In this document: positions 9,172 through 26,845 of the stretch, in pieces
Numbering within the stretch: the first letter of the stretch is position 1
How the letters are laid out: each line of letters opens with the position of its first letter
NCBI GenBank assembly: GCA_016180285.1
Contig: JACPBO010000005.1
Location: 48,189 to 112,188 of the forward strand
From: Candidatus Woesearchaeota archaeon
GTDB lineage: Archaea > Nanobdellota > Nanobdellia > Woesearchaeales > JACPBO01
DNA length: 64,000 bases
Reading direction: 5' to 3'
Notes under the pieces: generated by a model
Databases searched by the model: none
Seen by the model: only the letters and a program-made list of their open reading frames with translations
What the model was told of the DNA's origin: nothing
Made by a program: the position numbers and the translations under genes

Positions 9172-10107
9172 TCAAATCTCTTCCAGCTCATCAACCTCTG
9201 CACACAATTCTTTCACGTGCTGAACAGTTCTTTCAAACTGCTTTTTCTCATCTTCATCCAGATCAAACTCAATCACTTTCTCAACTCCGTCTTTGCCTAA
9301 TACTGCAGGGACTCCAATAAAATACCCTCCAACGCCATATTCTTTATCGCAATAGGCAGCACAGGGCAGCAGTTTTTTCCTGTCATTCAGTATGGCATCG
9401 ATCATTTCTACAATTGAAGAAGCAGGAGCATAATACGCAGAGCCTGTTTTTAGCAGATTAACAATTTCAATGCCGCCATTCCTTGTCCTTTCAACCAGCT
9501 TACCGATCTTCTCAGCCGGCAACAGCTCTGTAATCGGCTTTCCAGCTGTTGTTGTTTTGCTTATCAATGGCACCATGTCATCGCCATGGCTGCCAAGAAC
9601 AAATGCTTCAATCTTTTTTGCGTCAATATTCAGCTCTTCAGCAATAAATGTTTTAAATCTTGTTGTGTCAAGAACACCTGCCATGCCAATCACCTTGTTT
9701 TTTGAAAAATTGCTTATTTTTGCAGCCAGATAAACCATTGCATCTAAAGGATTTGTTACAACAATTAATATGGCATTCTGCGAATATTTAACCGCGCTCT
9801 CTACAACGCCTTTTACAATAGACACATTTGTTTTGAGCAGATCCTCCCTCGTCATTCCAAGCTTTCTGGCAATGCCTGCTGTTATAACTATAATGTCAGA
9901 GCCCTTTGTATCCTCATAGTTGTTTGTTCCAATAATCTCATGATCAAAGCCTTCAATAGGCCCGGATTCCAATATGTCAAGGGCTTTTCCCTGCGGCACG
10001 CCTTCGACAATATCAACTAACACAATATCTGCCAGATTCTTCAAGGCAAGCAGATGCGCTGCTGTTGCGCCGACATTTCCTGCTCCAATGATTGTTATTT
10101 TTGCCAT
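9172..10107 (-). CDS. mdh: Malate dehydrogenase (LDH-like MDH family)
   Basis: MAKITIIGAGNVGATAAHLL Rossmann fold with the catalytic loop GIARKLGMTRED...HGD. The start is taken at the MAKITII Met, since the longer ORF overlaps the upstream gene. Confidence 0.85.
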   Translation of the reverse strand: MAKITIIGAGNVGATAAHLLALKNLADIVLVDIVEGVPQGKALDILESGPIEGFDHEIIGTNNYEDTKGSDIIVITAGIARKLGMTREDLLKTNVSIVKGVVESAVKYSQNAILIVVTNPLDAMVYLAAKISNFSKNKVIGMAGVLDTTRFKTFIAEELNIDAKKIEAFVLGSHGDDMVPLISKTTTAGKPITELLPAEKIGKLVERTRNGGIEIVNLLKTGSAYYAPASSIVEMIDAILNDRKKLLPCAAYCDKEYGVGGYFIGVPAVLGKDGVEKVIEFDLDEDEKKQFERTVQHVKELCAEVDELEEI

Positions 10108-10108
10108 C

Positions 10109-10726
10109 TTAAAACCCGAGCTTTTCATTCACAAAGATCAAAGTTATTTTGCGATTCGGCATTATCTCCCTTTCAAACAGCAAGATCTTTCCAATTGCGC
10201 TGCCCCCATAGCCTATGCTTTTCATCCTCTTGTCTTCCAAAGGAAAACAATGCTCTCTGACTCGCTTAAACCCCTCTTCCAAGCTCGAAACAATCTTCTG
10301 CGCTCCGACAACCCATATAATGTTATCTGAGGAAAATGCATATGCAGGAATCTGGCTTCCGGAGGCGCTTGCAACCAGAACTTCGCCTGTTTTAACAACT
10401 GCATGGACGCTGCCTATAAAGAATTGGGAGCTTATGCTATTTTTTCTAAGCTCTGTTTGTTTTGCCTCATTTTTCTCAGCAAGGATTTCGTCTTTTAAAT
10501 TTTTCCAGGGATGCTTTTTGGATTTAAGCAAGTCAACAAATCCCATCTGCTCCAATGTTGTAGAGCCGCCTGTCATGATCTCTGATTTTTCAGGGATCAG
10601 ATTTTTTAGCCTTTCCAATGCCTTTTCTTTTGTTTCTACAAGCTCAGCAGTTATGCCTCTGGCTTTTAAAGCTTTGATTGCTTCATTGATTGTTTCAAGT
10701 GATGCTAACTTGTTGAAGTCTGTCAT
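10109..10726 (-). CDS. LUD-domain (LutC/YkgG-like) protein
   Basis: A 205-aa protein resembling lactate-utilisation LutC/DUF162 proteins. Its stop abuts the mdh start. Confidence 0.45.
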   Translation of the reverse strand: MTDFNKLASLETINEAIKALKARGITAELVETKEKALERLKNLIPEKSEIMTGGSTTLEQMGFVDLLKSKKHPWKNLKDEILAEKNEAKQTELRKNSISSQFFIGSVHAVVKTGEVLVASASGSQIPAYAFSSDNIIWVVGAQKIVSSLEEGFKRVREHCFPLEDKRMKSIGYGGSAIGKILLFEREIMPNRKITLIFVNEKLGF

Positions 10727-10794
10727 TTTTATCGCCTTCCTGCCCCAAAATAATCTGTGCCAATTAGATGTTAAGGTCTTGTACTTTTTAAATA

Positions 10795-11406
10795 TTACTG
10801 AATCTTAGCTATTCCTTCCATTATCTTCTGCCTGAAAATTTCATATCTCCAGTTGCTCAGCTTTTCTCCGTTAATGAAAAATGTAGGAGTTGCATCAACA
10901 CCCATATCTTCAGCTTTCCTCATGTCCCTTGCAACATAAGGCGCTTTTGCCCCTGAATCAAGGCAGTTGCTGAAGTTTTTCATGTCTAATTTTAGTTCTT
11001 TTGCATAGTTTTTCAGATTTCTTGGCGTCGGATCATCCAAGTTTGCATGCACTTTGTCAACAAATTCCCAAAATTTTCCCTGGTCATTCGCGCATTCTGA
11101 TGCTTCTGCTGCTTTAAACGCATATTGGTGCATTGGCAGCGGAAAATGCGCGTATTCCAGCTTTACATCATTTTTGAATTCATCCATTATTTTGTTGATA
11201 GTTGGATGGGCTGCCTTGCATGCAGGGCATTGGAGATCAGAAAACTCTGTTATTGTTATGCGAGCGCTTTCATTGCCTAAAACAGGCCTTGGCGTGTAAA
11301 TTTCGGGGTAATAAGGCTTATTAACATTTTTTAAATAAAAAAACAAAACTACCAGAATGATAAGAATAAAAAAACTATAACTCAGATATTTTTTCTTTAG
11401 CTTCAT
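10795..11406 (-). CDS. DsbA-family thiol:disulfide oxidoreductase, membrane-anchored
   Basis: N-terminal transmembrane segment and the motif [14 protein letters not shown] (CPAC) on a Trx fold with an inserted helical domain. Confidence 0.7.
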
Positions 11407-13832
11407 TTTATCTTTGCCTCATAAAGCCTCATCAAAAGTGAATTCCCGACAACGCTGACGCTGCTGAATGCCATTGCCGCAGCTGCTATGATCGGATTCA
11501 ATAAAAAGCCAGTAAATGGGTATAAGATTCCTGCTGCAATCGGAATCCCGGCTGTATTGTAAAAAAATGCCCAGAACAGGTTCTGCCTTATCTTCCTTAT
11601 TGTATAAGCGCTCAGGTCAATTGCGGTAACAACATCTCTCAGATCATTTTTGATCAAAACAATATTCCCTGTTTCAAGTGCAACATCTGTTCCGGCTCCG
11701 ATTGCAATTCCTATATCTGCCTGCGCAAGAGCAGGAGCATCATTTATGCCATCGCCGACAAATGCAACAATTTCGCCTTTATCCTGCAGCTTCCTGACTT
11801 CCTTTTCCTTGTCTTCAGGCAGCACTTCTGCAAGCACTTTGTCAATTCCGACCTGCCCTGCGATTGCGCCTGCTGTTCTTTTATTGTCGCCAGTTATCAT
11901 AATGACTTCCTTCTTCATCTTATGAAGCTGCTCAACTGCTTCTTTAGAATATTCTTTTAATGTATCCGCAACTGCGACCATGCCAATTACCCTGTTCCTC
12001 AGCGCAACGAGCATCACAGTATTGCCAAGATTCTCAAGCTCGGCAATTTTCGGCTCTATAATCCTTAACGGGAAATTCTCCATCATTTTTCTGTTGCCGA
12101 TTATGATTTCTTCATTTTTGTACTTTGCTTTAACGCCTTTTCCAGGAACTGCAATAAAAGATGAGGCACCGGTAAGTTTTATTTTTAATTCATCGCATTT
12201 TCTTATGATTGCTTCTGCAAGAGGATGCTCTGAGTTTTTCTCTGCAATCCCTGCAAATCTTATGATCTCCCTGTCTGTAATATTTGAAACAGAAACAATC
12301 TTTGTAACTTCTGGCTTTCCTTTTGTCAGGGTTCCTGTTTTGTCAAAGACAATTGCTGTCAGTTTATGCGCTGTCTCCAGTGCTTCTCCTGATTTTATCA
12401 GTATGCCGTTTTCTGCACCTTTCCCGGAGCCAACCATTATGGCAGTTGGCGTTGCCAGTCCAAGCGCGCATGGGCAGGCTATTATCAAAACTGCAATGAA
12501 AATGCTCAATGAAAACACAAAACTTTGGCCAAACAGCATCCAAAGGGCAAATGACAGGACTGCAATCCCGATAACTGTTGGAACGAAATAGCTGCTTACT
12601 TTATCAGCCAGCCTTTGTATCGGCGCTTTGCTGCCCTGCGCTTCCTCAACAAGCTTTATTATCTGCGACAACACAGTGTCTTTTCCTACTTTGGTTGCCT
12701 TGAATTTCAGAGCGCCGTTCTTGTTGATTGTAGCTCCGATCACATTGTCGCCGATTTTCTTTTCAACAGGAATGCTTTCGCCCGAGATCATTGACTCGTC
12801 AACTGCTGAATGCCCTTCAATTACAATGCCGTCAACCGGGATTTTCTCACCTGGCTTTATCAGCACGATATCCCCGGTGACAACATCATCAATGCTTACT
12901 TCAAGTTCTTTCCCGGACCTTATGACTCTTGCTGTTTTTGCCTGCAGGCCCATCAGCTTCTTTATCGCCTCTGATGTCTTGCCTTTCATTACTGCTTCCA
13001 GCAGTTTGCCCAGCAAAATGAATGTGATGATGATGGCTGCTGTATCATAATAAACTCCGCTTTTGAAAACATCAGGAATAAAAGTTACAAGAGCGCTGTA
13101 AATATAGGCTGCGCTTGTGCCCACTGCAATTAAAGTGTCCATATTTGCGGATTTATTTTTTAATGCTATCCACATTCCTGCATAAAACCTTCTTGCTAGA
13201 ATCAATTGCACAGGCGTTGTCAACGCGAACAGGACATAATTTGTGTAAGGCACAATTATCCTGAACCATTCTGGAAATGACAGCACAAAAATAGGAATGC
13301 TCAGCAAAAACCCGAAAAAAACCTCGATTTGCAGCCTTCTTATTTCTCTTTGCCTTGCCTCCTTCTCCTTGTCAGCTGATGCTGTTTCTTCGATCGGCTC
13401 GTAGCCTGCATTCTTTATTGCTTTCTTGATCTCACCAATATTTGCAAGAGCTGTATTAAATCTGACTATCGCTTTCTGATTAACAAGCAAGTCTTTTGAA
13501 ACAACGCCTTTGATTGTGCTTAACGCATCGCTTACTGCGCCGACACAATGCGGGTTGTCCATGCCGATGATTTTTAATTTTATCTCGGAAATGCCTTTCT
13601 CATTTGTTGCGCTTTCTTTTTTCTCTTCTTTTATTATCCCATAGCCTGTTTTTTCTATAGTTTTTTCTATCTCATCCTGATTTATTTTATTTTTATCAAA
13701 TTCAACAGCTGCCTTTTCAGATGCAAAATTCACGCCGGCATTGATTATGCCCTTTGCTTTTTTCAGCGATTTCTCTATTGTGTTTGCGCAGCTTGCGCAG
13801 TGCATGCCCGTTATTTTTATTGTTGTTTTCAT
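11403..13832 (-). CDS. copA: Copper-translocating P1B-type ATPase
   Basis: Two N-terminal heavy-metal-associated domains ([13 protein letters not shown] and [11 protein letters not shown]), transmembrane CPC ([13 protein letters not shown]), DKTGTLT phosphorylation site and GDGINDAP hinge. Confidence 0.9.
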
Positions 13833-14314
13833 TTTTTAGCCTTTATTTTGCAGCTGTTTAAATTGGATGATGTGCTTATTAAGATTAAGATCAATAACAG
13901 GGCAATAAATGCATTAACAAAAATATTAAATCCGGATATCAGCATGCCAATGCCGATTGTCGCGCTTGAAAAAGACAAAAGCAGAGGGGCGCATGTAGGG
14001 CAGACTGAAGTGAACAAGGCAGGAATTATTGCGAAATAACCATATGTTTTCTTACGCAAAGATAAATTCAACCTGAGACTGTAAATGTTCAGTGAAAATA
14101 TCAACCCGGAAAGGAGTGAGATTACAATTAAAAAAAACAAATTTAATGGCGTCCACAAATCAATTCTTACATAAAAGTTTGACAGCAAAATAAAGTTCCA
14201 TGCAAAAATGTAGATTGATGAAAAGACCAATGTAAAAACTGCAAAAAGCATCAAATAGGCCCAGTTGCCTAATACGCAGCTTATTCCATTCAGGCTTTGT
14301 TTTATTCTATTCAT
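13829..14314 (-). CDS. Polytopic membrane protein with CPTC motif, unknown function
   Basis: Four or five transmembrane segments and [10 protein letters not shown]. Overlaps the copA start by 4 nt. Confidence 0.35.
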
Positions 14315-14421: not shown

Positions 14422-14619
14422 TTATTTCTTTATTTCCTTACGATGGCCAGCATCATCATATTCATAAAGCTTGCCTTCTTCTTCACCATTGCATAATTTA
14501 TGCGAACCATCGCAGAAAGGCTGGTTTTTCGACAAGCCGCACATGCAGATCCATGCAGACTCCTTCTGCGGTTTAATTTCAAGCGGTACATTCGCCGCCT
14601 TTATTACTTTTCTACTCAT
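14422..14619 (-). CDS. CDGSH iron-sulfur domain protein (mitoNEET-like)
   Basis: CMCGLSKNQPFCDGSH matches the CDGSH signature C-x-C-x(n)-C-D-G-S-H. Confidence 0.7.
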   Translation of the reverse strand: MSRKVIKAANVPLEIKPQKESAWICMCGLSKNQPFCDGSHKLCNGEEEGKLYEYDDAGHRKEIKK

Positions 14620-14659: not shown

Positions 14660-14935
14660 TTATTTGATTTTTCCATTGAAATAATTGTACAGCCAGGCAA
14701 ACAATGCCCCTGCTATTGCGCCTATAACCATGACCTCGACTAGCCCAAGTACCACGCTTCCAATTGAAACATTTGCTTTCGCTATCAATGTAAGATCAAT
14801 GCCGTGGAATATGGCATTAAAAAATTTTAATGACCCTGCGGGCCACAATGCAATAATCGCAGCGCAGGCCAGTGAAAGTATTCCGCCTACGATGGCCAAT
14901 GCCAATGCTGTTGTTTTTACACTTAATTTTTCCAT
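14660..14935 (-). CDS. Small membrane protein
   Basis: A 91-aa protein with three hydrophobic helices. Confidence 0.3.
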   Translation of the reverse strand: MEKLSVKTTALALAIVGGILSLACAAIIALWPAGSLKFFNAIFHGIDLTLIAKANVSIGSVVLGLVEVMVIGAIAGALFAWLYNYFNGKIK

Positions 14936-14986: not shown

Positions 14987-15217
14987 TTAATGGCATTTGC
15001 CTTTATGCATATCTTTCATAATGAAGAAATGCATCAGCGGGCACAACAACAAAATAAGCCAATATAGGTAATTTTTGCCAATCCCAAAAAAATATGCAGC
15101 TGCGATTAATAAAATTAAGACCGCCAAGCAGCATACCAGCATAGTTATGCCTTTTGTATGCTTTACGCCTTTGCAGCCTTCTTCGGCTGTTCTTTTTTTG
15201 CCGGCAATTTTCTTCAT
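14987..15217 (-). CDS. Small two-transmembrane Cys/His membrane protein (DUF2933-like)
   Basis: LLLCPLMHFFIMKDMHKGKCH resembles the small metal-resistance-locus membrane proteins. Confidence 0.35.
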   Translation of the reverse strand: MKKIAGKKRTAEEGCKGVKHTKGITMLVCCLAVLILLIAAAYFFGIGKNYLYWLILLLCPLMHFFIMKDMHKGKCH

Positions 15218-15268: not shown

Positions 15269-15427
15269 TTACCTTTGCACTGCGTGCTTTGTGATCTCGA
15301 TATTGCAGCTGTGATGCTCTTTGCACCATTTCTGGCATTTTTCAGCCCATTTCTTGTCTTTGTAGGCAAAATTGCATTCTTCACAGATGAAAAGCTCTTT
15401 GTCGCTTTTAATTTCTTGCTTTACCAT
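15269..15427 (-). CDS. Small (52 aa) TRASH-like / zinc-ribbon metal-binding protein; below the ORF-track size cutoff
   Basis: MVKQEIKSDKELFICEECNFAYKDKKWAEKCQKWCKEHHSCNIEITKHAVQR has the C-x2-C...C-x3-C pattern of the TRASH-like domains found in archaeal metal-sensing regulators and metallochaperones. It overlaps the phosphatase gene start by about 20 nt. Confidence 0.4.
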   Translation of the reverse strand: MVKQEIKSDKELFICEECNFAYKDKKWAEKCQKWCKEHHSCNIEITKHAVQR

Positions 15428-15887
15428 TTTGCACCATTTCCTCGAAGTTTATCAGTGATTGGATTTGGGACCTGTTTGGATGTATGATTGGCCTTTTCCT
15501 CTTGATTAGCTTTATCGCCTCGATTGCAGTTTTGCCTTCTAAAATGAAATATGCTGCTACAAGTGTTGGAGCCCTTGCGTGACCATGCTCACAATGAACA
15601 TATACCTTGACTTCATTATCGACCAGCTTCTTAATAAAATTTGCCCCAATCAAAAGCTGTTTAAATGCCGGCGCTTTGTGGTCTTTTGTAGGCAGCCACA
15701 AATAATAGCCTACGCCAAATGGCTGGTCTAGCCTCATTTCTTCCAAGCTTATGTCAGCTCTAACGCCCTTTTTTATCAAGGATTTCTTAAAATGAGAGCT
15801 GCAGCACTGGTTTGTGCCAATGTAAATAAGCTTTGTGATTTCGGAATATTCAAAAATCGGTTTTTCTGGATGGATATTTTCAGGCAT
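15408..15887 (-). CDS. Dual-specificity / protein-tyrosine phosphatase
   Basis: VHCEHGHARAP fits the HC-x5-R P-loop. Confidence 0.7.
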   Translation of the reverse strand: MPENIHPEKPIFEYSEITKLIYIGTNQCCSSHFKKSLIKKGVRADISLEEMRLDQPFGVGYYLWLPTKDHKAPAFKQLLIGANFIKKLVDNEVKVYVHCEHGHARAPTLVAAYFILEGKTAIEAIKLIKRKRPIIHPNRSQIQSLINFEEMVQNGKARN

Positions 15888-15916: not shown

Positions 15917-16219
15917 TCATCTTTCACCCGCAACTATTTTCTCGCAAAACTCGTGCATGTGCTTGTCTATAAGGTTCATCAGGGGCTTTATTGTTTTTTT
16001 GTTTAGCGCGTATATCCTGTGCTTGCCTTTTTTTGCCATAAAAACAAATCCGCACTTTTCAAGCCTTTCAAGATTGTGTGAAACAGTTGTTTGGTTGAAA
16101 TCAAGCAGCTTGCAGATCTCGGAAACGCATTTAGGCGCTTTTCTCAATGTGTTTATTATCTCTAGCCTTCTTTCATTGTCCAGCGTCCCGAAGAATGTTT
16201 TATATGCCTTTTTAATCAT
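15917..16219 (-). CDS. ArsR/SmtB-family metalloregulator
   Basis: A 100-aa HTH protein (EICKLLDFNQTTVSHNLERLEKCGFV) with cysteines positioned as in metal-sensing ArsR proteins. Confidence 0.75.
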   Translation of the reverse strand: MIKKAYKTFFGTLDNERRLEIINTLRKAPKCVSEICKLLDFNQTTVSHNLERLEKCGFVFMAKKGKHRIYALNKKTIKPLMNLIDKHMHEFCEKIVAGER

Positions 16220-16261: not shown

Positions 16262-16546
16262 TTATGCCTTTACAAACAGCCCGCACCAGCACATTGGCTG
16301 CATTCCTGGCCTGGGCCTAAGCCATGTTTCATGAATGAAGAAGTTACAAGGGCAGATAAGCTCCATGTCTTTTTCAAATGTTCCATCTCTCAATCTGCAC
16401 GGGCACAGCTTCAGGCCGTGCTTTTGCTCATTTGACAATACGCCGTCTGCAACAATCTCAACATGCTTTCTGTCAGGGTTCAGCTTAAACGATCCGTTCT
16501 TTTTACTGAAAACATCCCAGACCCCGATCAATTCTTGCTTGTCCAT
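16262..16546 (-). CDS. Ferredoxin:thioredoxin reductase catalytic-subunit-like (FTR-like) protein
   Basis: LCPCRLRDGT...LICPCNFF...CWCG follows the CPC-x15-CPC-...-CxC arrangement of FTR beta-type Fe-S disulfide reductases. Confidence 0.6.
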   Translation of the reverse strand: MDKQELIGVWDVFSKKNGSFKLNPDRKHVEIVADGVLSNEQKHGLKLCPCRLRDGTFEKDMELICPCNFFIHETWLRPRPGMQPMCWCGLFVKA

Positions 16547-16556
16547 CTTGCGCTTG

Positions 16557-16703: not shown

Positions 16704-16706
16704 TTT

Positions 16707-19367: not shown

Positions 19368-20082
19368 AGTCTGTTATTGAAGCCAATTGACCCAAGATAT
19401 CTTCATTTTTGTCACCATAGCTTATAAGAATTTTATCTCCTTCGTTAAATACGTAATCTCTAAATTCAGTGTTTTCTTTCCTATTTATGTAAAATTTGAG
19501 GGATTTTTCTGCATTATTGCAATATTTTACTCCAGTATCTACTGTGAAGCAATCTTTTTCAAATTTCATTCCAATGCTTTCAAAGAAAATCCAAAGAGGA
19601 ACCCCTGTTGCATGCATATGCAAGACACTTGAAGCATCTTCTTTATTTAGGTTATCATCCACATGAATAAAACTGCTCTTCATATGATATTTTTCATTTG
19701 CGAAGTTAATTGAATTTCCATTTATAAAAACTTTAAAATCAGCATGGGTGTGCCCTGAACCAAGCACCCCAATCGTTGATTTAGAATCCATATTGCACTG
19801 CAGCTGGCCACTGTCTATGCATGCGCTTACATCCATGCCGCAAGCATCGCAAAGCCCATCATTATTTTTGTCCATTAATTTTCTGGCCAGTTGCTTATCA
19901 AAGGCAGTTAAAGCCATTTGGCTTGCAGAATGCATTTCAGTTAATTGTTTATTGGGATTATTGCCCTGAAAATTTAAAAAAGACACTGTGCTGAAGATCA
20001 AAGCAATAGCAGCTATAACTAAAAGCCCGTATAATAAATAATCCTCTTTGTTTTTTATTTTATTTGCTGTTTTTCTTTTCAT
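19351..20082 (-). CDS. Membrane-anchored extracytoplasmic Cys/His-rich protein, unknown
   Basis: Transmembrane anchor, then CDACGMDVSACIDSGQLQC and GSGHTHADFKVF...LHMHATG. Confidence 0.3.
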   Translation of the reverse strand: MKRKTANKIKNKEDYLLYGLLVIAAIALIFSTVSFLNFQGNNPNKQLTEMHSASQMALTAFDKQLARKLMDKNNDGLCDACGMDVSACIDSGQLQCNMDSKSTIGVLGSGHTHADFKVFINGNSINFANEKYHMKSSFIHVDDNLNKEDASSVLHMHATGVPLWIFFESIGMKFEKDCFTVDTGVKYCNNAEKSLKFYINRKENTEFRDYVFNEGDKILISYGDKNEDILGQLASITDFAKKH

Positions 20083-20663
20083 TTTTTCTCCATAAAAACA
20101 TTGTGCATGTATATTTTTCCACCGCCAGGCTCTGTGTGAATGGATTCTTTAATATAGGCTATTTTAAAAGGGCCTGAAAAATACCTTAAAATAGCCTCCT
20201 TTGAAATGCTCTTGTCAAAATGATTTTTATCGCTGAAGCACTGGATATAAACCCTGCCATTGCCTTTCAATAAATTAATAAGCCTTTTAACATATTTTGG
20301 CTTGTCTTTATCAGGGATATGGTGAAAGCATCCCCTGTCAAAAATAAAGTCAAATTTTTTGTTTGTCTTGAATTTCAATACCTTGCCTACAAGATAATTG
20401 CAAGCCAAGCCTTTTCTTAGGCACCTTTCTTTTGCCATATTTACTGCTGCAGGGGATATGTCAACTCCTGTAACCTTAAACCCCTTTGAAGCCAGATAAA
20501 TTGAGTTTGTACCTACTCCCGAACACATGTCAAGAACTTCTCCTGGCCTGATTTTACCCTGCTCAACAAGCTTCACAAGATTTTTTTCAGGATGTTCAGT
20601 ATGCCAGGGAATTTTTTCCAGCCTGTTCTCCCTGTATATCCTGTCCCACCCGTTTTTTTCCAT
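20079..20663 (-). CDS. Class I SAM-dependent methyltransferase
   Basis: VLDMCSGVGTNSIYLA (motif I) and FDFIFDRGCFHHI (post-I and II). Confidence 0.7.
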   Translation of the reverse strand: MEKNGWDRIYRENRLEKIPWHTEHPEKNLVKLVEQGKIRPGEVLDMCSGVGTNSIYLASKGFKVTGVDISPAAVNMAKERCLRKGLACNYLVGKVLKFKTNKKFDFIFDRGCFHHIPDKDKPKYVKRLINLLKGNGRVYIQCFSDKNHFDKSISKEAILRYFSGPFKIAYIKESIHTEPGGGKIYMHNVFMEKK

Positions 20664-20740
20664 TCTTGCCTTCGTATTGCTTAACTAGCTTGCTAGCAGC
20701 ATCCTTTTTTTCCTTTCCCCATTTTTGCACCTCATCCGCA

Positions 20741-21364
20741 TTATGATTTTTTAGCCACAAATATATTGGCATAACCTTTAAGCGCAGGAATTTTATTGAT
20801 AACTTTAAACTTATAGTATTCCAAATGCCTTTGAAAATCCCTGCTGAAAAAGTCATCAATGGCTTCTTTATCAATTATTCTCTCAATCCATTCCAATATT
20901 AAAAATGCTGTTGTTTGTTTTTTTGGCTCCACATATTCAACAAAAACCGCTGTGCCTCCTTTTTTCAATGTCCTGCAAATCTCTGCTATTGCCTTATTTC
21001 TGTCTTTGAATCTTAATTCATGCAACCCCAATGATTCGAATGCAATATCGAAGTAATTGTCTTCAAAGGGAATATTTTTTGCATCTGCAACAATGTATTT
21101 TGTGTTTTTGGAACTTGTTTTTTTCCTGGCTCTTCTTATCATATTTTCTGACAGATCAACCCCAAAAACATTGCCTTTGGCTTTTTCTGCAATCAGGCTC
21201 GTCAATGTTCCTGTGCCGCAAAAAAGATCCAGTATGTTTTTTGCATGCCCGATATCAACAGCATTTGCTGTGGCTTCCCTTAGCCTTTTCTCGCTTCCTA
21301 AAGGAAGCAAAAAGAGCCTGATTTCAAGGTCATAAAGCGCGCTTATTATTCCATTATAAAACAT
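20741..21364 (-). CDS. Class I SAM-dependent methyltransferase (UbiE/COQ5-like)
   Basis: ILDLFCGTGTLTSLIA, VFGVDLSENM and FDIAFESLGLHE. Confidence 0.7.
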   Translation of the reverse strand: MFYNGIISALYDLEIRLFLLPLGSEKRLREATANAVDIGHAKNILDLFCGTGTLTSLIAEKAKGNVFGVDLSENMIRRARKKTSSKNTKYIVADAKNIPFEDNYFDIAFESLGLHELRFKDRNKAIAEICRTLKKGGTAVFVEYVEPKKQTTAFLILEWIERIIDKEAIDDFFSRDFQRHLEYYKFKVINKIPALKGYANIFVAKKS

Positions 21365-21365
21365 T

Positions 21366-22190
21366 TTAGCTTACAGCTGCTGCTGATGACGATGCGTTTA
21401 TTATTGTGTTGTTTGCAATGTTTTTATAAACGACTTTCAGCACGCTCAAATCCCTGAAAATGTAGCTGCCGTCACCCTCAACTGATCCGACCTGCGGCCA
21501 AACTACTGCAAGCGAAGGATAGAGTCCAGCATCCTTTGACAATATGACTGTAGGCACAAATGTAATGTTGTATTTTCTAATCAGCTCCTTGCCTGTTTCT
21601 GATGAAATATCCGCGTATCTTTCTGCTGAAATGGCCATTCCAAAGTTTTGCGGATTTGAAAGTATTAGCTTATGGATTGTTACATTGTAGCAGGTTTTGC
21701 AGCTGCTGTCTGTCAGATATGTCAGCTCTACAAAGCCCTCTGCTTTTGATTTTGCAACATCAAAATAAGGGGGATTGATCAGCCTCAGGACGTAGCTGCC
21801 GTCTTTTTCCACACTCCCGATATCGCTCCAGACGCCTGTTATCTCTTTATATTGCGATGCTTCTTTTGAGAATACTAATGCCGGGAGCTTTAATATCTTG
21901 TATTTTTCAATTAATTGTTTTCCCTCTGCGCTGCTGGCATCAATTGTCTTTTCGCTTTCAAAGAAAATGCCTAAATTCTTTAGGGCAGGCACCAGGCCTG
22001 TCAAATCGCTGCAGCTATCGCATGAAGATGCTTTGAGGTAAATTGAAGAAATGCCTTTTTTAACAACTATTTGGCTGTTTATTCTGAATGTTATGAAAAT
22101 GTTTGTTAAGAACACTATCATGATAAGGGCAACAAGCAACAACTTGATATTTGTAAAGCCGAATTTTCTTTTTTTATTTTTTTCTTCCAT
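21366..22190 (-). CDS. Membrane-anchored protein with two tandem thioredoxin-like CxxC domains (PDI-like a-a' arrangement)
   Basis: Internal duplication of about 100 aa. Repeat 1 carries SSCDSCSDL...LPALVF...DIGSVEKDGSYVLR. Repeat 2 carries SSCKTCYNV...VPTVIL...QVGSVEGDGSYIFR. Both have the cis-Pro loop. Confidence 0.5.
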   Translation of the reverse strand: MEEKNKKRKFGFTNIKLLLVALIMIVFLTNIFITFRINSQIVVKKGISSIYLKASSCDSCSDLTGLVPALKNLGIFFESEKTIDASSAEGKQLIEKYKILKLPALVFSKEASQYKEITGVWSDIGSVEKDGSYVLRLINPPYFDVAKSKAEGFVELTYLTDSSCKTCYNVTIHKLILSNPQNFGMAISAERYADISSETGKELIRKYNITFVPTVILSKDAGLYPSLAVVWPQVGSVEGDGSYIFRDLSVLKVVYKNIANNTIINASSSAAAVS

Positions 22191-22207: not shown

Positions 22208-22669
22208 CTAAATCCTGCAGCCTGTTAATTCCGAAAGCCTTTCAAAGCTCTGCACTTTTTCGTATCGTTCATTGTTTATTATCCATGTCGGAGTCACTTT
22301 TATATCTGGCCCTTTCTGGTAATCCCTGTAATCAACATACTTGAATGAGTTCCCGAACATTTTGGCCTGCTGCTTTGTGTACTGGCACCATTCAATTGCG
22401 CCATACATCACTGCTCCCTTTTCTTTTAAGCATTTTGCAAAATCATCATAGGCGCCTGGCTTTGATGCAGAATAGATGCTGTATGCCACAATAGCTATTA
22501 TTATAACAGCGATAACTGACAGGATTGTTATTTTATTTCTTTTTTTAGATGCTGCATTTTCTTTTCTTTCCTTATCCAGCTGCTCTCTCTGCTGCCTTAG
22601 CTGCTCTGCTTCCTCACGAAGCTTCTGCTGCCTTTTTTCATCCATCTCCTTTTTGCTTAATTCTTCCAT
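22208..22669 (-). CDS. Membrane-anchored thioredoxin-like protein (CxxT variant)
   Basis: Charged cytoplasmic N-terminus and one transmembrane segment, then YGAIEWCQYTKQQ, which resembles VKOR-associated Trx domains (YGAxWCxxC) with a single Cys. Confidence 0.45.
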   Translation of the reverse strand: MEELSKKEMDEKRQQKLREEAEQLRQQREQLDKERKENAASKKRNKITILSVIAVIIIAIVAYSIYSASKPGAYDDFAKCLKEKGAVMYGAIEWCQYTKQQAKMFGNSFKYVDYRDYQKGPDIKVTPTWIINNERYEKVQSFERLSELTGCRI

Positions 22670-22695: not shown

Positions 22696-22908
22696 TCAAA
22701 ACAACTCTTTAACTGAATTAATTTTCTCAACTGCATTGTTTGCGCCTGTATTTTCCGGCCCGATGACTCCGCAGCCGCCGCCAACTGGCCCGCTCGGTGG
22801 AGCGCTGCCGCTGCCATAATCGCCGCTTGAGCATCCTGCAACAAAAATTAAGCCAACAATCAATAACAACATTAATGCTGTTTTCATATTAGTTTTTTCC
22901 ATTTTCAC
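22696..22908 (-). CDS. Small lipoprotein with internal PVGGGCG motif
   Basis: Lipobox LIFVAGC followed by a Gly/Ser-rich stretch and VGGGCGV. Confidence 0.4.
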   Translation of the reverse strand: MKMEKTNMKTALMLLLIVGLIFVAGCSSGDYGSGSAPPSGPVGGGCGVIGPENTGANNAVEKINSVKELF

Positions 22909-22911: not shown

Positions 22912-23112
22912 TCAACATCCGCCTACCATTCCGCTGGATGAGCTTGCTGCTGGCGCAGATGCTGCTGCACCTGAAGATGTTGCAGTTGCGCCTGAAACTG
23001 CAGCTGTTCCGCTGCTCAGCTTTGTTTTTATTGTGTTCAGCTCAAATGCCTGCACAACTGATACGAGCAATAAAACGCCCAATACAATTGCTATTATTAT
23101 GTTTTTGTCCAT
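22912..23112 (-). CDS. Small secreted protein ending in MVGGC-COOH (paralog family member 1)
   Basis: Signal peptide with predicted cleavage after VQA, an Ala/Ser/Thr-rich linker and the C-terminus SSSSGMVGGC directly before the stop. The stop codon was verified on the reverse strand. Confidence 0.45.
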   Translation of the reverse strand: MDKNIIIAIVLGVLLLVSVVQAFELNTIKTKLSSGTAAVSGATATSSGAAASAPAASSSSGMVGGC

Positions 23113-23140: not shown

Positions 23141-23434
23141 TCATTTTACTTTTTTAATCAATTTAACCAATAAATAAACAATCAAAACCAAAACAGCCAA
23201 ATACAAAACCTGTCCAATTAAGTATAAGCTGCTATAGCCGCCCATGTAGCCGGCAGTAATTGAATTTCCTGCCATCATTGAGCTGCCTAAATCGCTTACA
23301 GCCATGCCTGTTGCAGCTGGAGCCCCACTAGCTGCCTCGCTGTGATTATCCATTCCAGCGCATGCCAAAACCGGCAACGCAGTTAATGATAGCGCTAATA
23401 AAAAAAGCACAATCAATAAAAAGGACTTTTTCAT
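23141..23434 (-). CDS. Small Met-rich protein with signal peptide/lipobox-like N-terminus and C-terminal transmembrane anchor
   Basis: VLACAGMDNHSEAASGAPAATGMAVSDLGSSMMAGNSITAGYMGG followed by a transmembrane segment. Confidence 0.4.
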   Translation of the reverse strand: MKKSFLLIVLFLLALSLTALPVLACAGMDNHSEAASGAPAATGMAVSDLGSSMMAGNSITAGYMGGYSSLYLIGQVLYLAVLVLIVYLLVKLIKKVK

Positions 23435-23707
23435 TTAGCAGCCACCCACCATTGTTGGCGCGACAGATCCTGAACTGCTGCTTTGCCCGATTCTCGCAGG
23501 AATAGTTCCATGCATTTCATAATTCATTTTTTCGTTCTCTGTCCATCCTGTTGTGTCGAGCTTGCCGCTTGCTGCGGCGCTTACGCCTGTTGCAAGGCCT
23601 GCTGCAGGCACCTTGGACCTGATATCCATCAATTGGAATGCCTGAATAAACGAAACTATCAGGATAGCTGACAGAAAGACAACAATTATTGTTATTTTTT
23701 TGTCCAT
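23435..23707 (-). CDS. Small secreted protein ending in MVGGC-COOH (paralog family member 2); start taken at MDKKITII
   Basis: Its N-terminus is homologous to that of the 22912..23112 protein (MDKxIxI..VL..L.VS..QAF.L). C-terminus SSSSGSVAPTMVGGC. The ATG lies 1 nt after the stop of the upstream gene. Confidence 0.45.
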   Translation of the reverse strand: MDKKITIIVVFLSAILIVSFIQAFQLMDIRSKVPAAGLATGVSAAASGKLDTTGWTENEKMNYEMHGTIPARIGQSSSSGSVAPTMVGGC

Positions 23708-23708: not shown

Positions 23709-24422
23709 TTAACAACCTCCAACCATTGCCCCGCCAGATGATGTTGCTCCTTTTTCTATTCCCCTGTATTTGTTTGATGCCAAATTGATGTAATTCAGCT
23801 CAATTCCCTTGGACTGCAATATCGCAGCTTTCTGCGTCATTATGCCGGGGAAAAACAATGTTTTCCATTTTCCAAGCTCTTCCAAAATCTCGTCATTTGT
23901 GAATTCACTTGGATGCTTGCTTACCAAATATTTTGCCAATCCGCGCATTGCACCGCTGTGGGCGCAGCCGCATGCAGCAGCCCCATTTTTAAAGATAATT
24001 GCCTCAGCTCCGCAGCAGTATTCGCAGCTTATCTGCGTGCCAACAGCTATATAGCGCTGCAAAGCATCCCCTGTTAATGTAATTGATCTATCATAAACGC
24101 TCATCTTATTTATCGCTGCATTCGCCTTTCTTGCATCATTCGGAGAAATATCATCATAGCTTAAGCCAAGTTCTGCTCCATAAATCTTTGGAATTCCTGT
24201 CGGAATAACAGAACCCTGCAGATTTGATGAGCTTACTGCTGTGCTGCCGGAGCTTGATGCTGTTGAAATGCCTGTTGCTGCAAATCTAGATCCAATGCTC
24301 GATATCTGCCATTGGTTAAAAATAACAAGCAGAGCGATAACAACTATCAGCCAAATGCTCAATTTGTTTATCGTTTCCTTTAAATTTGCTTTTTTGTTCT
24401 TAGATTCCATTTTTAATTTCAC
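23709..24422 (-). CDS. Membrane-anchored Cys-rich protein ending in MVGGC-COOH (paralog family member 3)
   Basis: Transmembrane anchor, Ser-rich linker, SCEYCCGAEAIIFKNGAAACGCAHSGAMRG and C-terminus KGATSSGGAMVGGC. Confidence 0.45.
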   Translation of the reverse strand: MKLKMESKNKKANLKETINKLSIWLIVVIALLVIFNQWQISSIGSRFAATGISTASSSGSTAVSSSNLQGSVIPTGIPKIYGAELGLSYDDISPNDARKANAAINKMSVYDRSITLTGDALQRYIAVGTQISCEYCCGAEAIIFKNGAAACGCAHSGAMRGLAKYLVSKHPSEFTNDEILEELGKWKTLFFPGIMTQKAAILQSKGIELNYINLASNKYRGIEKGATSSGGAMVGGC

Positions 24423-24471: not shown

Positions 24472-24993
24472 TTATTCTTTGCAGCAATCAATTATTTTCT
24501 TTACGATGTTTGCAAGCTTCTCCTTCCAGCTGCTGCTTTGAGTCTGGATCATTTCGCCTGATTTTATTAATTTCAGATTCAGGCTCCAAAATAAAGTGTA
24601 AAGGTCAAATGCATTCTTGAAAAACATCTGCGCTTTCGCATCGTCTTTTTTGCTTAAATGCTTATTCCCGACTTCAATCAGGCGCATGCTTGCCCCGAGC
24701 AGATGCTTGCTTATGCACCACACTTCGCCTTCAGGCTCTTTAACTATCTCCTTAAGCAGATTTTTTCTTAGCTCTCTTATTTGATTTAAAAGCTCAATGT
24801 AGCTCTTCTTATTCGTTTTCATTGCGCTGAAATACATGTGCTCTTCTATGCTTATAAGATTCATCAGCGCTATGCTCAGGTCTTCATCTGACGAAAGGTC
24901 AACTTTGCCTTTACTTTTAAGTTCACTTGCCCTTTTTACAAGCTCATTCACATCCATCTTAATGTTTTCAGCCATCATCTTATCGCCAGCCAC
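24472..24993 (-). CDS. hypothetical soluble protein
   Basis: A 173-aa protein with no motif. It is co-directional with the cluster and overlaps the upstream gene by 19 nt. Confidence 0.3.
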   Translation of the reverse strand: MAGDKMMAENIKMDVNELVKRASELKSKGKVDLSSDEDLSIALMNLISIEEHMYFSAMKTNKKSYIELLNQIRELRKNLLKEIVKEPEGEVWCISKHLLGASMRLIEVGNKHLSKKDDAKAQMFFKNAFDLYTLFWSLNLKLIKSGEMIQTQSSSWKEKLANIVKKIIDCCKE

Positions 24994-25487
24994 ACTATTG
25001 CGCTTGTTATTGCCAATAATGCCAAAATAAAAGCAATTGTCTGGAACGGAAATATAGCCTTGTTTTTGTTGATCTGCTTCACATTGCTGCTAATGAACAA
25101 TCCTGCATAAACTAAAATGCTGCCCGCTATTATGCCCAATAATAATTTATCTACTCCAAAAATCCTGCTTGCATTGAATAATCCTCCAAAATAAAATGAG
25201 ATTATTGTTGCAGCAAATATCAATATTGCAACAATTTGGCCTTGGAACGGGATGTATTTCTTCTTCAGCATGTTGTTGAACCATAATGCAGTTGAAATTA
25301 TAAATGCGCCGACCCACAGCCCGACAATCATATCATCAACGCCGTAAAATCTCGTGATAACGATTCCTGCGCCGACAGCAGCTGTGCATAGCGGGCAATG
25401 CGCGCTTACAAGCGGCACAAATGCAGTTAGCGAAAAGAACAGCATCAACATAAAAATCAGGCTTCTTTTCATTTTATTTTCACTCAT
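24975..25487 (-). CDS. Polytopic membrane protein with HCPLC in the first transmembrane segment (possible membrane thiol-oxidoreductase partner)
   Basis: Five transmembrane segments and SAHCPLCTAAVGAG in the first. Confidence 0.4.
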   Translation of the reverse strand: MSENKMKRSLIFMLMLFFSLTAFVPLVSAHCPLCTAAVGAGIVITRFYGVDDMIVGLWVGAFIISTALWFNNMLKKKYIPFQGQIVAILIFAATIISFYFGGLFNASRIFGVDKLLLGIIAGSILVYAGLFISSNVKQINKNKAIFPFQTIAFILALLAITSAIVWLAIR

Positions 25488-25933
25488 TAAGGCGGAAGGG
25501 GCGTCTTTGTTCCCATATCAGTATATCTTTGATCAACATATTTTGTGTCTATGTATTCCCTTGTCTCTTTCAATGACATGCCTTGCTTAAGCAGCTCGTC
25601 TGCCTTTAATGCTATGGCAACGCATGCAGGGCAGTCAATTGCAGCATGATCCTGCCAGCTTCCGTCTTCATTTATGAAGCATTCCTTGAGGCTGTGCATT
25701 ATCGGGATTGTTTTTCCCCTGTGCTGCATTTCATGCATGAAATCATCCTGCCTGTCAAGCGCAATGCTGTAAGCCAGCTTGTTTTTATAATTATTCATCA
25801 CAAAACTCGGCAGCATGTTTTCATTTGCAAGCATTGGCATTTGTTTTTTTGATGTGTTTAGTATGATTGCCAATGAAAAAATTACCAATACAATCAATGC
25901 CAATCCGGCAATCAGCTTTGTTTTTGCATTCAT
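25487..25933 (-). CDS. Membrane-anchored protein with CPAC motif
   Basis: Transmembrane anchor, then HAAIDCPACVAIALK. Confidence 0.35.
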   Translation of the reverse strand: MNAKTKLIAGLALIVLVIFSLAIILNTSKKQMPMLANENMLPSFVMNNYKNKLAYSIALDRQDDFMHEMQHRGKTIPIMHSLKECFINEDGSWQDHAAIDCPACVAIALKADELLKQGMSLKETREYIDTKYVDQRYTDMGTKTPLPP

Positions 25934-26214
25934 TTTAGCTTATCCAAGCATTTCTTGTATTGATCAGGGTGATGCCCCATATGCTCTCTCCATTCTTGAT
26001 CTGTGTAACCTTCAGGAGTTGCGCAAATATCTTCCTTGTTTTGGCTTTGAATTGCCTTATTGTAATTTGCGCCGAAATAGTTTTTTTGCGTTGTGAAGCT
26101 CAATACGCTCCATATCAGTGCTGCGATTAAAACAAATGCCGCAACATACAATATTATTTGGTCATATTTGATTTGATCGTGTTTTTTTGCCATATTAATG
26201 CAGAACAAGGCCAA
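25930..26214 (-). CDS. Small membrane-anchored protein with His-rich tail
   Basis: Transmembrane anchor, then EWREHMGHHPDQYKKC. Confidence 0.3.
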   Translation of the reverse strand: MALFCINMAKKHDQIKYDQIILYVAAFVLIAALIWSVLSFTTQKNYFGANYNKAIQSQNKEDICATPEGYTDQEWREHMGHHPDQYKKCLDKLK

Positions 26215-26305
26215 GATGATATATTTAATCTGTTAAACGATCATATGAAATCGGCTTTAAAGTGTTTAAATAGCTCTAAATATGTTCAGAATCGTTCAAA
26301 AATGG

Positions 26306-26845
26306 CTAAATCGCCTTCTTTAAGAAAACCTGATTTGTCTTTCCCTTGACAACTTTTTTAATGAGGCCTTTCTTTTCCAAGCCTGCAAGCACAACAGAGA
26401 GCTTTGCCTTTGACATGTCTGTCCTTATTCTCAATGTTGCCTGGGTTATTCCGTCCTGCTCTTTAACTGATTTTATTGCCTTTTTCTCATCATCATCAAG
26501 GCCGCTGAGCAGAATATCAAATTTTTCCACTTTAAATTTTTCATCCTTTGTTTCTTTCAATGCCTTGATGACTTCCTGCTGGCTTTTCTCAAAGAAAATC
26601 AGATAAAAGCCAAGGCTTGCCACTGCAAGCATTATTGCCGCGCCAACATATATTGGGATCTGGGCTTTTGCTTTTTGAGTGTGAGGGCATATGTTAGGAT
26701 CAGTAGGGCATGTTCCCCCTGTCGATGCATAAAAATCGATCTGCGCCTGATAAGCCCTGTCAATGCTGATCTTTATGAAAAAAAGAACAGAGAGCATTAA
26801 AACTGCAAATATTATAAGCGCCCATCCTAATACTTTGTTGTTCAT
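26306..26845 (-). CDS. Membrane-tethered winged-helix (MarR-like) transcription regulator; first gene of the long minus-strand train
   Basis: The start is taken at MNNKVLGW (26845). There are two transmembrane segments with a CPxDPNICPH loop. The C-terminal wHTH is ITQATLRIRTDMSKAKLSVVLAGLEKKGLI. Confidence 0.5.
   Translation of the reverse strand: MNNKVLGWALIIFAVLMLSVLFFIKISIDRAYQAQIDFYASTGGTCPTDPNICPHTQKAKAQIPIYVGAAIMLAVASLGFYLIFFEKSQQEVIKALKETKDEKFKVEKFDILLSGLDDDEKKAIKSVKEQDGITQATLRIRTDMSKAKLSVVLAGLEKKGLIKKVVKGKTNQVFLKKAI

Follow-up and report, generated by a model that had tools for sequence, protein, structure and literature searches.

For copper efflux by the ATPase CopA, the events on the cytoplasmic side of the membrane are well understood. 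The described systems that come closest to the locus considered here, a train of minus-strand genes at positions 9172-26845 of a 64-kb stretch of DNA from a Candidatus Woesearchaeota metagenome-assembled genome (the window, by which we mean the whole stretch analyzed), are copper operons and extracytoplasmic thiol systems. With the csoR-copA(-copZ) and cueR-copA-copG operons the train and its relatives share a P1B-1 ATPase as the center, with DUF411/CopG, HMA chaperone-like proteins and metal-sensing repressors as neighbors, and a related operon from bacteria of the candidate phyla radiation (CPR) even starts with CsoR; copG itself is copper-induced in a CueR-dependent manner in Vibrio parahaemolyticus (PMC12341060). 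The window differs from these operons in having no CsoR, CueR, CopY, CopZ or DUF411; its apparent control is by a winged helix-turn-helix (wHTH) protein and an ArsR-family protein, and most of its accessory proteins (FAM-A, minis, TM170, p173, TM172 and p94, introduced below) fall into no described family. A second point of reference is the MerR-CopA-cupredoxin-DUF2933-ICMT cassette of Alteromonas and other gamma-proteobacteria, in which DUF2933 stands beside CopA and a cupredoxin (PMC8478169). Here too CopA is accompanied by cupredoxin-like and DUF2933-like proteins and by S-adenosylmethionine (SAM) methyltransferases; however, the DUF2933 and cupredoxin matches are borderline, the methyltransferases are UbiE- and TPMT-like rather than ICMT, a MerR is missing, and 6 kb of the train separate genes that form one cassette there. 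The copR/copT/copA cluster of Sulfolobus comprises a TRASH-domain regulator and a chaperone. It likewise presents an archaeal CopA with small Cys-rich partners, but the TRASH motif is absent from the window.

On the side of thiol chemistry, the Scs and DsbD/CcdA systems tie copper tolerance to membrane-anchored thioredoxin (Trx)-fold proteins on the outer face, as the train appears to do, and by analogy they are probably the closest match to how the train works. Nevertheless, no DsbD_TM or ScsB protein is encoded in the window, and Pfam shows no kinship of its polytopic proteins TM170, TM161 and TM172 with DsbD/CcdA; DsbD_TM proteins do lie beside the module in three related loci (L004, L088 and L090). 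The GGCGG arm of SoxY presents a single Gly-flanked Cys at the extreme C-terminus of a flexible outer-side peptide, as do the protein that we call FAM-A and its arm-only relatives (the minis). The FAM-A tail differs in ending in MVGGC-COOH, with the Cys as the last residue, its carrier is anchored by a transmembrane (TM) helix or is a helical Cys-cluster domain, whereas SoxY adopts an Ig-like fold, and Sox partners are absent. CcmH is set apart by its LRCxxC motif, which is absent from FAM-A, the latter having five Cys and a His in addition to the Cys tail. Finally, the TM-linker and Trx-like domain of the Synechococcus VKOR-thioredoxin fusion 3kp9 are homologous to the train protein Trx153 (E=2e-26), which lacks the VKOR catalytic domain and has CQYT in place of CxxC.

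The train falls outside these known copper and thiol systems, since the window lacks the components that define them, be it the regulators, DsbD_TM, ICMT, TRASH or CopZ. Nothing on MVGGC, DUF5676 or the module as such was found in the searchable literature, and FAM-A, p173 and their fellow core families have no match in Pfam, NCBIfam, the PDB or the literature. The train is probably a locus for copper homeostasis and envelope-thiol management, composed of several large undescribed families that DPANN archaea have in common with CPR bacteria. Our preferred reading, to which we give a probability of roughly 0.6, is that it represents a native copy, rearranged and expanded, of a DPANN neighborhood, partly common to CPR bacteria, which would equip the outer face of the membrane for the copper exported by CopA.

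A gene neighborhood conserved across DPANN archaea

Synteny was anchored on FAM-A, a 233-residue protein of the train, in 80 loci from different DPANN species (L001 and following), spanning Woese-, Pace- and Nanoarchaeota, Aenigmatarchaeota, Iainarchaeota and Micrarchaeota. Neighbors within 10 kb were scored in two ways: by tblastn with the proteins of the window and by an unbiased clustering of all open reading frames (ORFs). About 20 genes of the train belong to a neighborhood that is conserved across the DPANN phyla; hence, the copper and extracytoplasmic-thiol theme proposed in an earlier note on this DNA, which was made from the sequence alone, is not a coincidence of one genome. The DUF7343 regulator is found in 61 of the 80 loci, at a median of -714 bp (upstream) of FAM-A and in 87% on the same strand. 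With the family in so many loci, the observation of that note that the train is headed by a membrane-tethered wHTH regulator captures a conserved feature. In 57 of 67 regulators with two TM helices the inter-helix loop has at least two Cys, mostly as C..CPxH, and in two it is Met-rich. The counts of the other families descend from 51 loci for TM170 and 45 for the minis through 32-36 for CopA to 9-11 for ArsR (Table 1).

The consensus order runs from the regulator through FAM-A, the mini(s), optionally CopG, TM170, p173 (or in its place a TM protein with a CCK end), TM172 and p94, and in its later part through a Met-rich protein, DUF5676, CopA, Zn52 and DsbA. Both order and orientation differ between loci, the window being a rearranged and expanded version, and the linkage is therefore maintained rather than merely inherited. 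The neighborhoods hold several independent copper markers, namely CopA, DUF411/CopG, HMA CopZ-like proteins and Met-rich proteins. DUF411/CopG, its identity confirmed at E=3.6e-24, occurs in 29 of the 80 loci but not in the window. When the markers counted are restricted to CopA, DUF411/CopG and CopZ-like or TRASH-type proteins, such a strict marker is present in 29 of the 33 loci of at least 14 kb, a Trx-fold gene in 18 of these 33, and CopA in 12 of the 20 loci of at least 20 kb; the chance expectation for a single-copy gene in a genome of about 1 Mb is estimated at perhaps 2-4%. In the window, FAM-A with its CxxCC..CxCxH ectodomain and terminal Cys tail is followed by minis on the same strand, the regulator lies upstream, the TM170-p173 pair is present, and CopA provides a copper marker within 10 kb. 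Matches to the conserved clusters are restricted to 10.8-26.8 kb of the window, apart from a second DUF7343 regulator and a cysteine desulfurase to the left of the train.

These data bear directly on the possibility that the train has no functional unity and is a long same-strand run, as is usual in small archaeal genomes, into which several Cys-rich genes have fallen by chance. Other runs of about 11 genes are indeed found in the window, about a third of the train genes are unlinked in other genomes, and the promoter-like signals point to several units with no shared operator. Against this, rearrangement notwithstanding, a set of about 20 genes stays together from one DPANN phylum to another and in part even in CPR bacteria, the cluster matches are confined to the train, and the 80 loci are not near-clonal, as judged by protein identities of 49-70% and their differing gene orders. 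The linkage data already largely refute a chance assembly, and we regard it as very unlikely.

The same comparison does not support the description of the train as dedicated. The genes for Mdh, LUD, TrmO, FTR-B, GCAxxG, CDGSH, the cupredoxin-like protein and the DSPc phosphatase occur near FAM-A in only 0-2 of the 80 loci. These are co-oriented, lineage-specific passengers, as probably are the two methyltransferases, for which no more than 4-5 loci gave matches, with about 30% identity. In the relative L001, which is 84% identical, unrelated genes take the place of the region past ArsR. The block from C_GCAxxG_C_C to the FTR-B-like gene is conserved only in L001, and the CDGSH gene adjoins ArsR in L004. 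A CuA-type cupredoxin lipoprotein was not a frequent partner, being found in only three of the 80 loci.

FAM-A and the arm-only MVGGC proteins

FAM-A has at least 1980 homologs, without a Pfam domain, and is present in at least 324 species-representative genomes; an exhaustive profile search gave 320 clusters at 50% identity. The copy in the window is identical to NCBI HYU07_01505, the database protein starting four codons after the GTG start. FAM-A has a single TM helix with an NQ.QI motif, preceded by a Lys-rich N-terminus that the positive-inside rule places in the cytoplasm, and a tail, about 15 residues long, whose last residue is Cys. The alignment shows an invariant core, SCEYCCGA-x12-ACGCAHS.AMRGLAKYL...GKWK.LFFP...NY..LASN.YR.IE, and the C-terminal MVGGC; in diverged members the terminal Cys is kept in NMVGEC, NQQGEC and NQMGKC. 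The ectodomain was modeled as helical with a predicted local distance difference test (pLDDT) score above 90; a Foldseek search with it found nothing, and Pfam searches with 21 members at E<=10 gave no SoxY, SoxZ or CcmH match. FAM-A is fused to a TM161-like CPxC membrane domain in P0377 (388 residues) and in L014 (4091-5329), and to an FKBP-type prolyl isomerase in P0334 (456 residues). Kinship with the neighboring PCYCGC family was considered and rejected, the hhalign probability being 2%.

The minis carry a FAM-A-like TM motif (Q.FQL) and the tail without the ectodomain, and are found in one to three tandem copies. Many of them add Met/His motifs, either W.E.EKM.YE.HG..PAR or ETYEQMMARMHP, and in some the N-terminus, on the cytoplasmic side, carries DCC. 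In an ORF census 168 of 9436 ended in GGC, every one in the form x[MQV][VQ]GGC, and the small GGC-ending ORFs of the loci lie without exception (87 of 87) on the strand of FAM-A. Two further small proteins lie between or beside the minis in the window: Met97, encoded between the two minis, for which L001 has no counterpart at the corresponding place, although the nanoarchaeotal locus L003 has a comparable small, anchored, Met-rich protein upstream of FAM-A; and a small lipoprotein with a GGGCGV motif, which is kept in L001 and L003.

Such arms invite two other explanations. The cysteines of MVGGC and GGGCG could be covalent sulfur-carrier arms (persulfide or thiosulfate-like), analogous to the SoxY GGCGG arm, FAM-A being the enzyme that they serve or the partner on which they dock. 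SoxY is indeed defined by a terminal Cys with Gly neighbors on a flexible peptide (PMC6067878, PMC5336275), a small lipoprotein carries GGGCGV, and both the window and L003 have a cysteine desulfurase gene close by. However, no Sox, Dsr, rhodanese or TusA-type genes occur in the 80 loci, the FAM-A model is helical and its 21 members gave no SoxY match, and the desulfurase is cytoplasmic and rarely linked, copper genes dominating among the neighbors; hence, we consider a sulfur carrier highly improbable. Alternatively, the minis might be precursors of secreted or surface-retained Cys peptides, comparable to ribosomally synthesized and post-translationally modified peptides (RiPPs) or chalkophores, with FAM-A as the maturation enzyme. 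Their conserved N-terminal part, variable linker and invariant C-terminal pentapeptide, their one to three tandem copies beside a conserved Cys-rich protein, and the invariant Val and Gly of the tail, which suggest recognition by an enzyme, would all accord with this. Yet FAM-A bears the same tail, the N-terminal part of the minis is a TM anchor homologous to that of FAM-A, and consistent linkage is seen neither for a protease or transporter nor for a maturase of the radical-SAM, MNIO or YcaO type, leaving a peptide-precursor role with very little likelihood.

Bacterial versions and alternative regulators

The module extends beyond the archaea. Homologs of TM170 and p173 are also found in CPR bacteria, the window p173 being 51% identical to a bacterial-type protein in L087 (E=1e-63), and at least 4934 p173 homologs exist in DPANN and CPR. 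Two bacterial contigs, L089 (2886-7528) and L090 (2041-7531), encode in order a repressor of the CsoR family, an accessory protein (a membrane protein or a DsbD_TM-cupredoxin protein), CopA with the motifs CPC, YN..P and MAFSS, a Trx-like lipoprotein (CPAC/CLHC), a TM170 homolog and p173. Bacterial ribosomal protein S12 is encoded on both contigs, and S7 and EF-G also on L090. Their CsoR proteins have a Cys..His..Cys pattern, which we take to be the mark of Cu(I)-sensing members. A contig of Candidatus Magasanikbacteria (L088) encodes a BlaI-BlaR pair, a full FAM-A ending in LPSMVGGC and an arm-only mini ending in LPNMVGGC (at 1903-2992 and 4656-5108), together with a TM172 homolog, p173, a DsbD_TM protein, a peroxiredoxin and CsoR. 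The sharing of parts of the module between domains at about 50% protein identity implies an ancient inter-domain transfer.

In some lineages (loci L003, L004, L027, L030, L039 and L083), a divergent pair of a BlaR1-like M56 peptidase and a BlaI/Penicillinase_R protein occupies the slot of the DUF7343 regulator upstream of FAM-A. Three unrelated types of regulator thus head the same genes, the two-TM wHTH, BlaR/BlaI and CsoR proteins, of which the first two would sense the envelope, and CopA is a recurring partner under all three.

Gene content of the train

The region is tiled without a break by minus-strand ORFs. Its curated content is 34 protein genes and two 9-codon micro-ORFs, 36 in total over 17.7 kb (Table 1), rather than the approximately 38 consecutive genes counted previously, the uninterrupted one-strand run itself standing. 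A 103-residue ORF at 16597-16908 was rejected as a spurious frame artefact; the true genes in 16547-16956 encode a 48-residue rubredoxin-like protein (16557-16703) and an 82-residue TM protein with CRC (16707-16955), both kept in L001. Overlaps of 4 nucleotides, noted as numerous, occur at seven junctions (PCYCGC, p173, p243, Met-rich, GCAxxG, CopA and DsbA), and several further junctions are of -1 to +3 nucleotides. No plus-strand gene intervenes, as had been stated: the nine largest plus-strand ORFs within the run have no Pfam match, and plus-strand ORFs in related loci behave as antisense shadows. GC skew and AT skew are negative over the entire run, and of the other one-strand runs in the window the longest comprises about 11 genes. 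The encoded proteins have twice the Cys content of those elsewhere in the window (2.00% versus 1.03%) and 1.5 times the Met content.

Table 1. Features of the train, from the head regulator downwards, and of its flanks, with predicted architectures and the number of the 80 DPANN loci with a match
Feature	Positions	Strand	Basis	Loci
Head regulator, 179 residues: two TM helices, outward loop CPTDPNICPH, C-terminal DUF7343 winged helix	26306-26845	-	Pfam E=1e-10	61
p94: small TM-anchored protein, C..P.GYT...W.EHM.HHPD.Y..CL	25930-26193	-	no Pfam match; cluster C13	23
PCYCGC-family protein	25487-25933	-	PF13798 E=3.9e-11, 43.5 bits (cut-off 25 bits)	
TM170: six-helix membrane protein, invariant AHCPLCT at outer end of helix 2	24975-25487	-		51
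p173: cytoplasmic helical protein, ..GEVWCISKHLL.., ends DCCKE	24472-24978	-	no Pfam match	37
FAM-A, 233 residues: N-in signal-anchor, Cys-cluster ectodomain, flexible MVGGC-ending tail	23709-24410	-	alignment	
mini95: arm-only paralog, TM (..IQAFQL..), WTENEKMNYEMHGTIPAR motif, MVGGC-ending tail	23435-23707	-	tblastn	45
Met97, 97 residues: signal peptide, Met/Gly-rich segment, C-terminal TM anchor	23141-23434	-	read from sequence	
mini66: arm-only, TM, Ser/Ala linker, MVGGC end	22912-23112	-		26
Small lipoprotein with GGGCGV motif	22696-22887	-	lipobox and motif read from sequence	3
Trx153: TM-anchored Trx-like domain, VKOR-partner type, active site degenerated to WCQYT	22208-22669	-	family profile	
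Tandem Trx-like membrane-anchored protein (CDSC, CKTC)	21366-22190	-	sub-threshold Trx matches; cluster C15	21
UbiE-like and TPMT-like SAM methyltransferases	20079-21364	-	Pfam	4-5
Micro-ORF b, MGKGKKGCC*, between the two methyltransferases	20693-20722	-	Shine-Dalgarno-like GAGGTG upstream	
p243: TM-anchored, CDACG..C..C and H.HADF..H..H.HATG	19351-20082	-	no Pfam match; cluster C31	8
TM172: polytopic membrane protein, vicinal CC in TM helix	18849-19334	-	no Pfam match; cluster C5	41
Met-rich secreted protein, C-terminal TM anchor (MQMH..HELMH..MMSMMSMM..)	18295-18852	-	sequence reading; cluster C16	19
Block of C_GCAxxG_C_C, TrmO_N, cupredoxin-like lipoprotein, 82-residue TM, 48-residue rubredoxin-like and FTR-B-like genes	16262-18298	-	Pfam	0-2
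ArsR/SmtB-family regulator	15917-16219	-	HTH_5 E=2.5e-14	9-11
DSPc-type Cys phosphatase (HCEHGHAR)	15408-15887	-	Pfam E=5e-17	1
Zn52: 52-residue mini-protein C.EC..C..WC..H.SC	15269-15427	-	no Pfam match; cluster C18	18
Micro-ORF a, MGKGKKGCC*, stop abuts DUF2933 start codon	15218-15247	-	GGAGGTGA Shine-Dalgarno	
DUF2933-like membrane protein: vicinal CC in TM1, ..CPLMH.., ends KCH	14987-15217	-	PF11666 E=4.9e-4, just under cut-off	12
DUF5676 two-TM protein	14660-14935	-	PF18926 E=4e-19	17-19
CDGSH iron-sulfur mini-protein	14422-14619	-	PF09360 E=1.5e-11	2
TM161: polytopic membrane protein, CPTC in TM helix, 4-nucleotide overlap with CopA	13829-14314	-	cluster C24	11
CopA: P1B-1 Cu(I)-exporting ATPase, two HMA domains	11403-13832	-	Pfam E1-E2_ATPase/Hydrolase/HMA, E=2e-62 and 5e-39	32-36
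Membrane-anchored DsbA-like protein (CPAC)	10795-11406	-	Thioredoxin_4 E=9e-29, DSBA E=8e-15	12-13
LUD-domain protein and malate/lactate dehydrogenase, housekeeping, 3' end of train	9172-10726	-	Pfam	0
Secreted NHL/BNR-like protein, 1065 residues	5942-9139	+		
Second two-TM DUF7343 regulator	5381-5905	+		
GILT-like thiol reductase	4388-5329	-		
Cysteine desulfurase	2724-4091	-		
803-residue protein	30554-32965	+	weak CBM49 and Y_Y_Y matches	

Nearly all of the domain calls previously made from the letters were borne out by Pfam (Ldh/Mdh, DsbA/Thioredoxin_4, the P1B ATPase, zf-CDGSH, DSPc and ArsR HTH_5, as well as FeThRed_B, C_GCAxxG_C_C and the TPMT-like and UbiE-like methyltransferases), and Pfam additionally assigns LUD, DUF5676, TrmO_N, PCYCGC and the DUF7343 wHTH with its two N-terminal TM helices. 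Others were recovered in part: the DUF2933 and cupredoxin calls are borderline (20.6 bits against a cut-off of 21, and 26.8 against 27), and of the Trx calls the single-Trx protein holds, being the homolog of the 3kp9 Trx domain, while the tandem-Trx protein has only sub-threshold matches. The TRASH-like mini-protein could not be recovered, as a six-frame regular-expression search found the C.M...FCS..C motif nowhere in the window; what is present is the Cys/His protein Zn52. Some of the related loci do hold C.M..FCS..C minis ending in GCC, which Pfam does not call TRASH/YHS, and PadR regulators with Cys-rich tails.

CopA, as read from its translation, carries the P1B-1 Cu(I) signature, which in the Arguello classification consists of CPC, YN(x4)P and M(xx)SS: besides the phosphorylation site FDKTGTLT it has the TM metal-site motifs ACPCALG (CPC), YNTAGIP and MAFSS. 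The first of its HMA domains has GMHCASC and the second lacks a CxxC. The adjoining TM161 has only a weak Pfam match to MerC (E=0.017). DUF5676 usually lies right before CopA in the loci.

The two micro-ORFs of the window differ at five nucleotides, all synonymous. The consensus M(G/A/R)KGK.KGCC*, of 9-12 codons, recurs twice in L001 (13474-13521 and 18518-18643) and in seven further loci (L011, L014, L052 in two copies, L058, L063, L065 and L066), every time on the strand of the module and with a Shine-Dalgarno-like sequence (mostly GAGGT/GGAGG, once GCGAGGT) within 18 nucleotides upstream of the start. The genes downstream encode membrane proteins: DUF2933, TM172, DUF5676 or Met-rich. Vicinal Cys-Cys pairs at predicted cytoplasmic termini are seen in several other proteins. 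They lie N-terminally as M.DCC in some minis, FAM-A proteins and the bacterial TM protein between CsoR and CopA, and C-terminally as DCCKE in p173, ECCKKW in the TM protein replacing p173 and GCC in small C.M..FCS..C proteins (examples: L071 5391-5714, L017 4541-4780, L087 6266-6859, L089 3166-3786 and p173 of the window).

Among the remaining envelope proteins, TM170 gave no structural neighbor in structure comparisons, and TM172 has a homolog in the CPR contig L088. The PCYCGC protein of the window has lost the motif that names its family: compared with the L001 gene, which is 92% identical, a clean in-frame deletion of 30 nucleotides takes out exactly EYIACYCGCG. The family profile of Trx153 matches residues 163-277 of 3kp9, other members of the family having WCPHC or WCPNC.

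The flanks of the train encode ribosomal protein S3Ae, NFACT and the 1065-residue secreted protein. The thiol theme reaches to the left of the train, as the cysteine desulfurase, the GILT-like reductase and the second DUF7343 regulator lie there; this regulator heads the gene of the secreted protein. The 803-residue protein on the other side is unrelated to the train.

Transcription units and origin

Promoter and terminator signals were sought by a simple scan for TATA, Shine-Dalgarno and oligo-T sequences suited to an archaeon. TATA-like boxes lie at -27 to -30 before the regulator (at -30), ArsR, CDGSH and cupredoxin genes, with five or more such starts in all. T5 tracts follow the stop of the head regulator gene and that of p173, and AT-rich gaps of 107 and 68 nucleotides precede TM161-CopA-DsbA and LUD-Mdh, respectively, the latter with a TATA-like box ahead of LUD. 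The ArsR gene has TTTATAAA at -30 and no Shine-Dalgarno sequence, and is probably transcribed from its own leaderless promoter. With these boxes, tracts and gaps, the train probably comprises at least five to seven transcription units, and the signals at this level speak against a single unit.

A horizontally acquired metal-resistance island has likewise to be weighed. Parts of the module are found in both archaea and CPR bacteria, with identities of about 50%, and the GC content at third codon positions is slightly higher in the train (0.409) than elsewhere in the window (0.374, p=0.03). Conversely, the relative synonymous codon usage of the train correlates with that of the rest of the window at r=0.968, the same as in a half-versus-half internal control, its tetranucleotide correlations (0.953-0.966) are inside the range among other segments, and GC is uniform along the window. 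None of the flanking genes scanned matched an integrase or a transposase, and tRNA and Rfam scans of all 64 kb found no tRNA gene and no Rfam family at the gathering score. Further, S3Ae and NFACT adjoin the train in the relative L001 (GCA_030651135) too. The train is native to its genome, and an acquired island, a possibility that the earlier note proposed to test, is almost certainly the wrong reading.

A model for copper handling on the outer face

Taken together, the most likely function of the train is the capture of Cu(I) in the envelope and the protection of thiols around CopA, the mechanism being inferred from motifs and context. Cu(I) would be released outside by CopA and then captured and buffered by a brush of membrane-anchored proteins with Met, His and Cys ligands on flexible arms. 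Candidates for this brush are p94, DUF2933, DUF5676 and the Met-rich proteins, as well as FAM-A and the minis with their MVGGC tails. The FAM-A ectodomain (CxxCC...CxCxH) could serve as the docking or cluster site for the arms; vicinal CC and CxC are typical of Cu(I)-thiolate clusters, as in CopG and Cox17. TM170, with its outer-face CPLC, the cytoplasmic p173 (WC, CC), TM161/TM172 and the DsbA- and Trx-like proteins might keep the envelope thiols correctly oxidized or reduced under copper stress. The two-TM wHTH regulator is predicted to sense copper or the thiol state through its outward Cys..CPxH loop and to control the core, with a second unit under ArsR.

A specific relay of copper from arm to cluster is a tentative part of this model, which we hold at clearly less than even odds. 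Similarly doubtful is the far-reaching version in which FAM-A and the minis form, with TM170-p173 and the Lys-rich CC-ending micro-protein, a new extracytoplasmic swinging-arm Cys system whose MVGGC peptides shuttle Cu(I) or redox equivalents to the five-Cys/His ectodomain and which is the standard acceptor for CopA copper in DPANN and CPR, the two radiations of ultra-small cells.

Several observations weigh against the copper-centered reading. About a third of the long loci have no CopA within 10 kb, and neither does the closest relative, L001, within 10 kb downstream. No shared operator was found among the promoters of the train, which have only TATA-like AT-rich words in common. FAM-A, TM170, p173, TM172 and p94 have no annotated relative; their roles are read from context and motifs, and copper capture by the train proteins is put forward on genomic grounds. 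Moreover, the MVGGC tail is near-invariant throughout, including the Val and both Gly, which suggests recognition by an enzyme or partner over simple metal ligation.

The alternative that shares most of this evidence casts the core as a quinone-independent pathway of extracytoplasmic disulfide formation or isomerization for organisms without DsbB/VKOR, the linkage to copper arising since copper is mainly a thiol stress. FAM-A and TM170-p173 would then re-oxidize or reduce DsbA and the Trx-like proteins via shuttle cysteines on flexible arms, such as are known in Erv2, Ero1 and DsbB. To our knowledge, most single-membrane DPANN and CPR cells lack quinones and DsbB/VKOR, and no DsbB or VKOR match was obtained by Pfam in the train proteins or the flanks scanned. 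The train encodes DsbA, the tandem-Trx protein and the Trx domain of a VKOR partner; in the CPR contigs TM170-p173 always comes after a lipoprotein with CPHC/CPAC, DsbD_TM and peroxiredoxin genes adjoin p173 in L088, and FAM-A is found fused to an FKBP domain. The Trx-fold genes in 18 of the 33 long loci can be cited in its favor too, but copper markers are present in 29 of them. The arms bear a single Cys and not a pair, Trx153 of the window has lost its resolving Cys, and TM170 has one CxxC only, without a second membrane Cys pair for electron relay. A CcmH-like fold of FAM-A would also favor a disulfide pathway; however, the similarity is marginal, and Foldseek and Pfam found nothing. Since CsoR control and the position right after CopA in bacteria also point to copper, we consider a primary role in disulfide formation unlikely, and retain copper capture with thiol protection around CopA as the preferred reading.

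If this reading is correct, the families that are tied to CopA under three regulator types would be candidates for the extracytoplasmic copper acceptor or the thiol-maintenance machinery of DPANN archaea and CPR bacteria, and the micro-protein of 9-12 residues offers a conserved case that can be tested.

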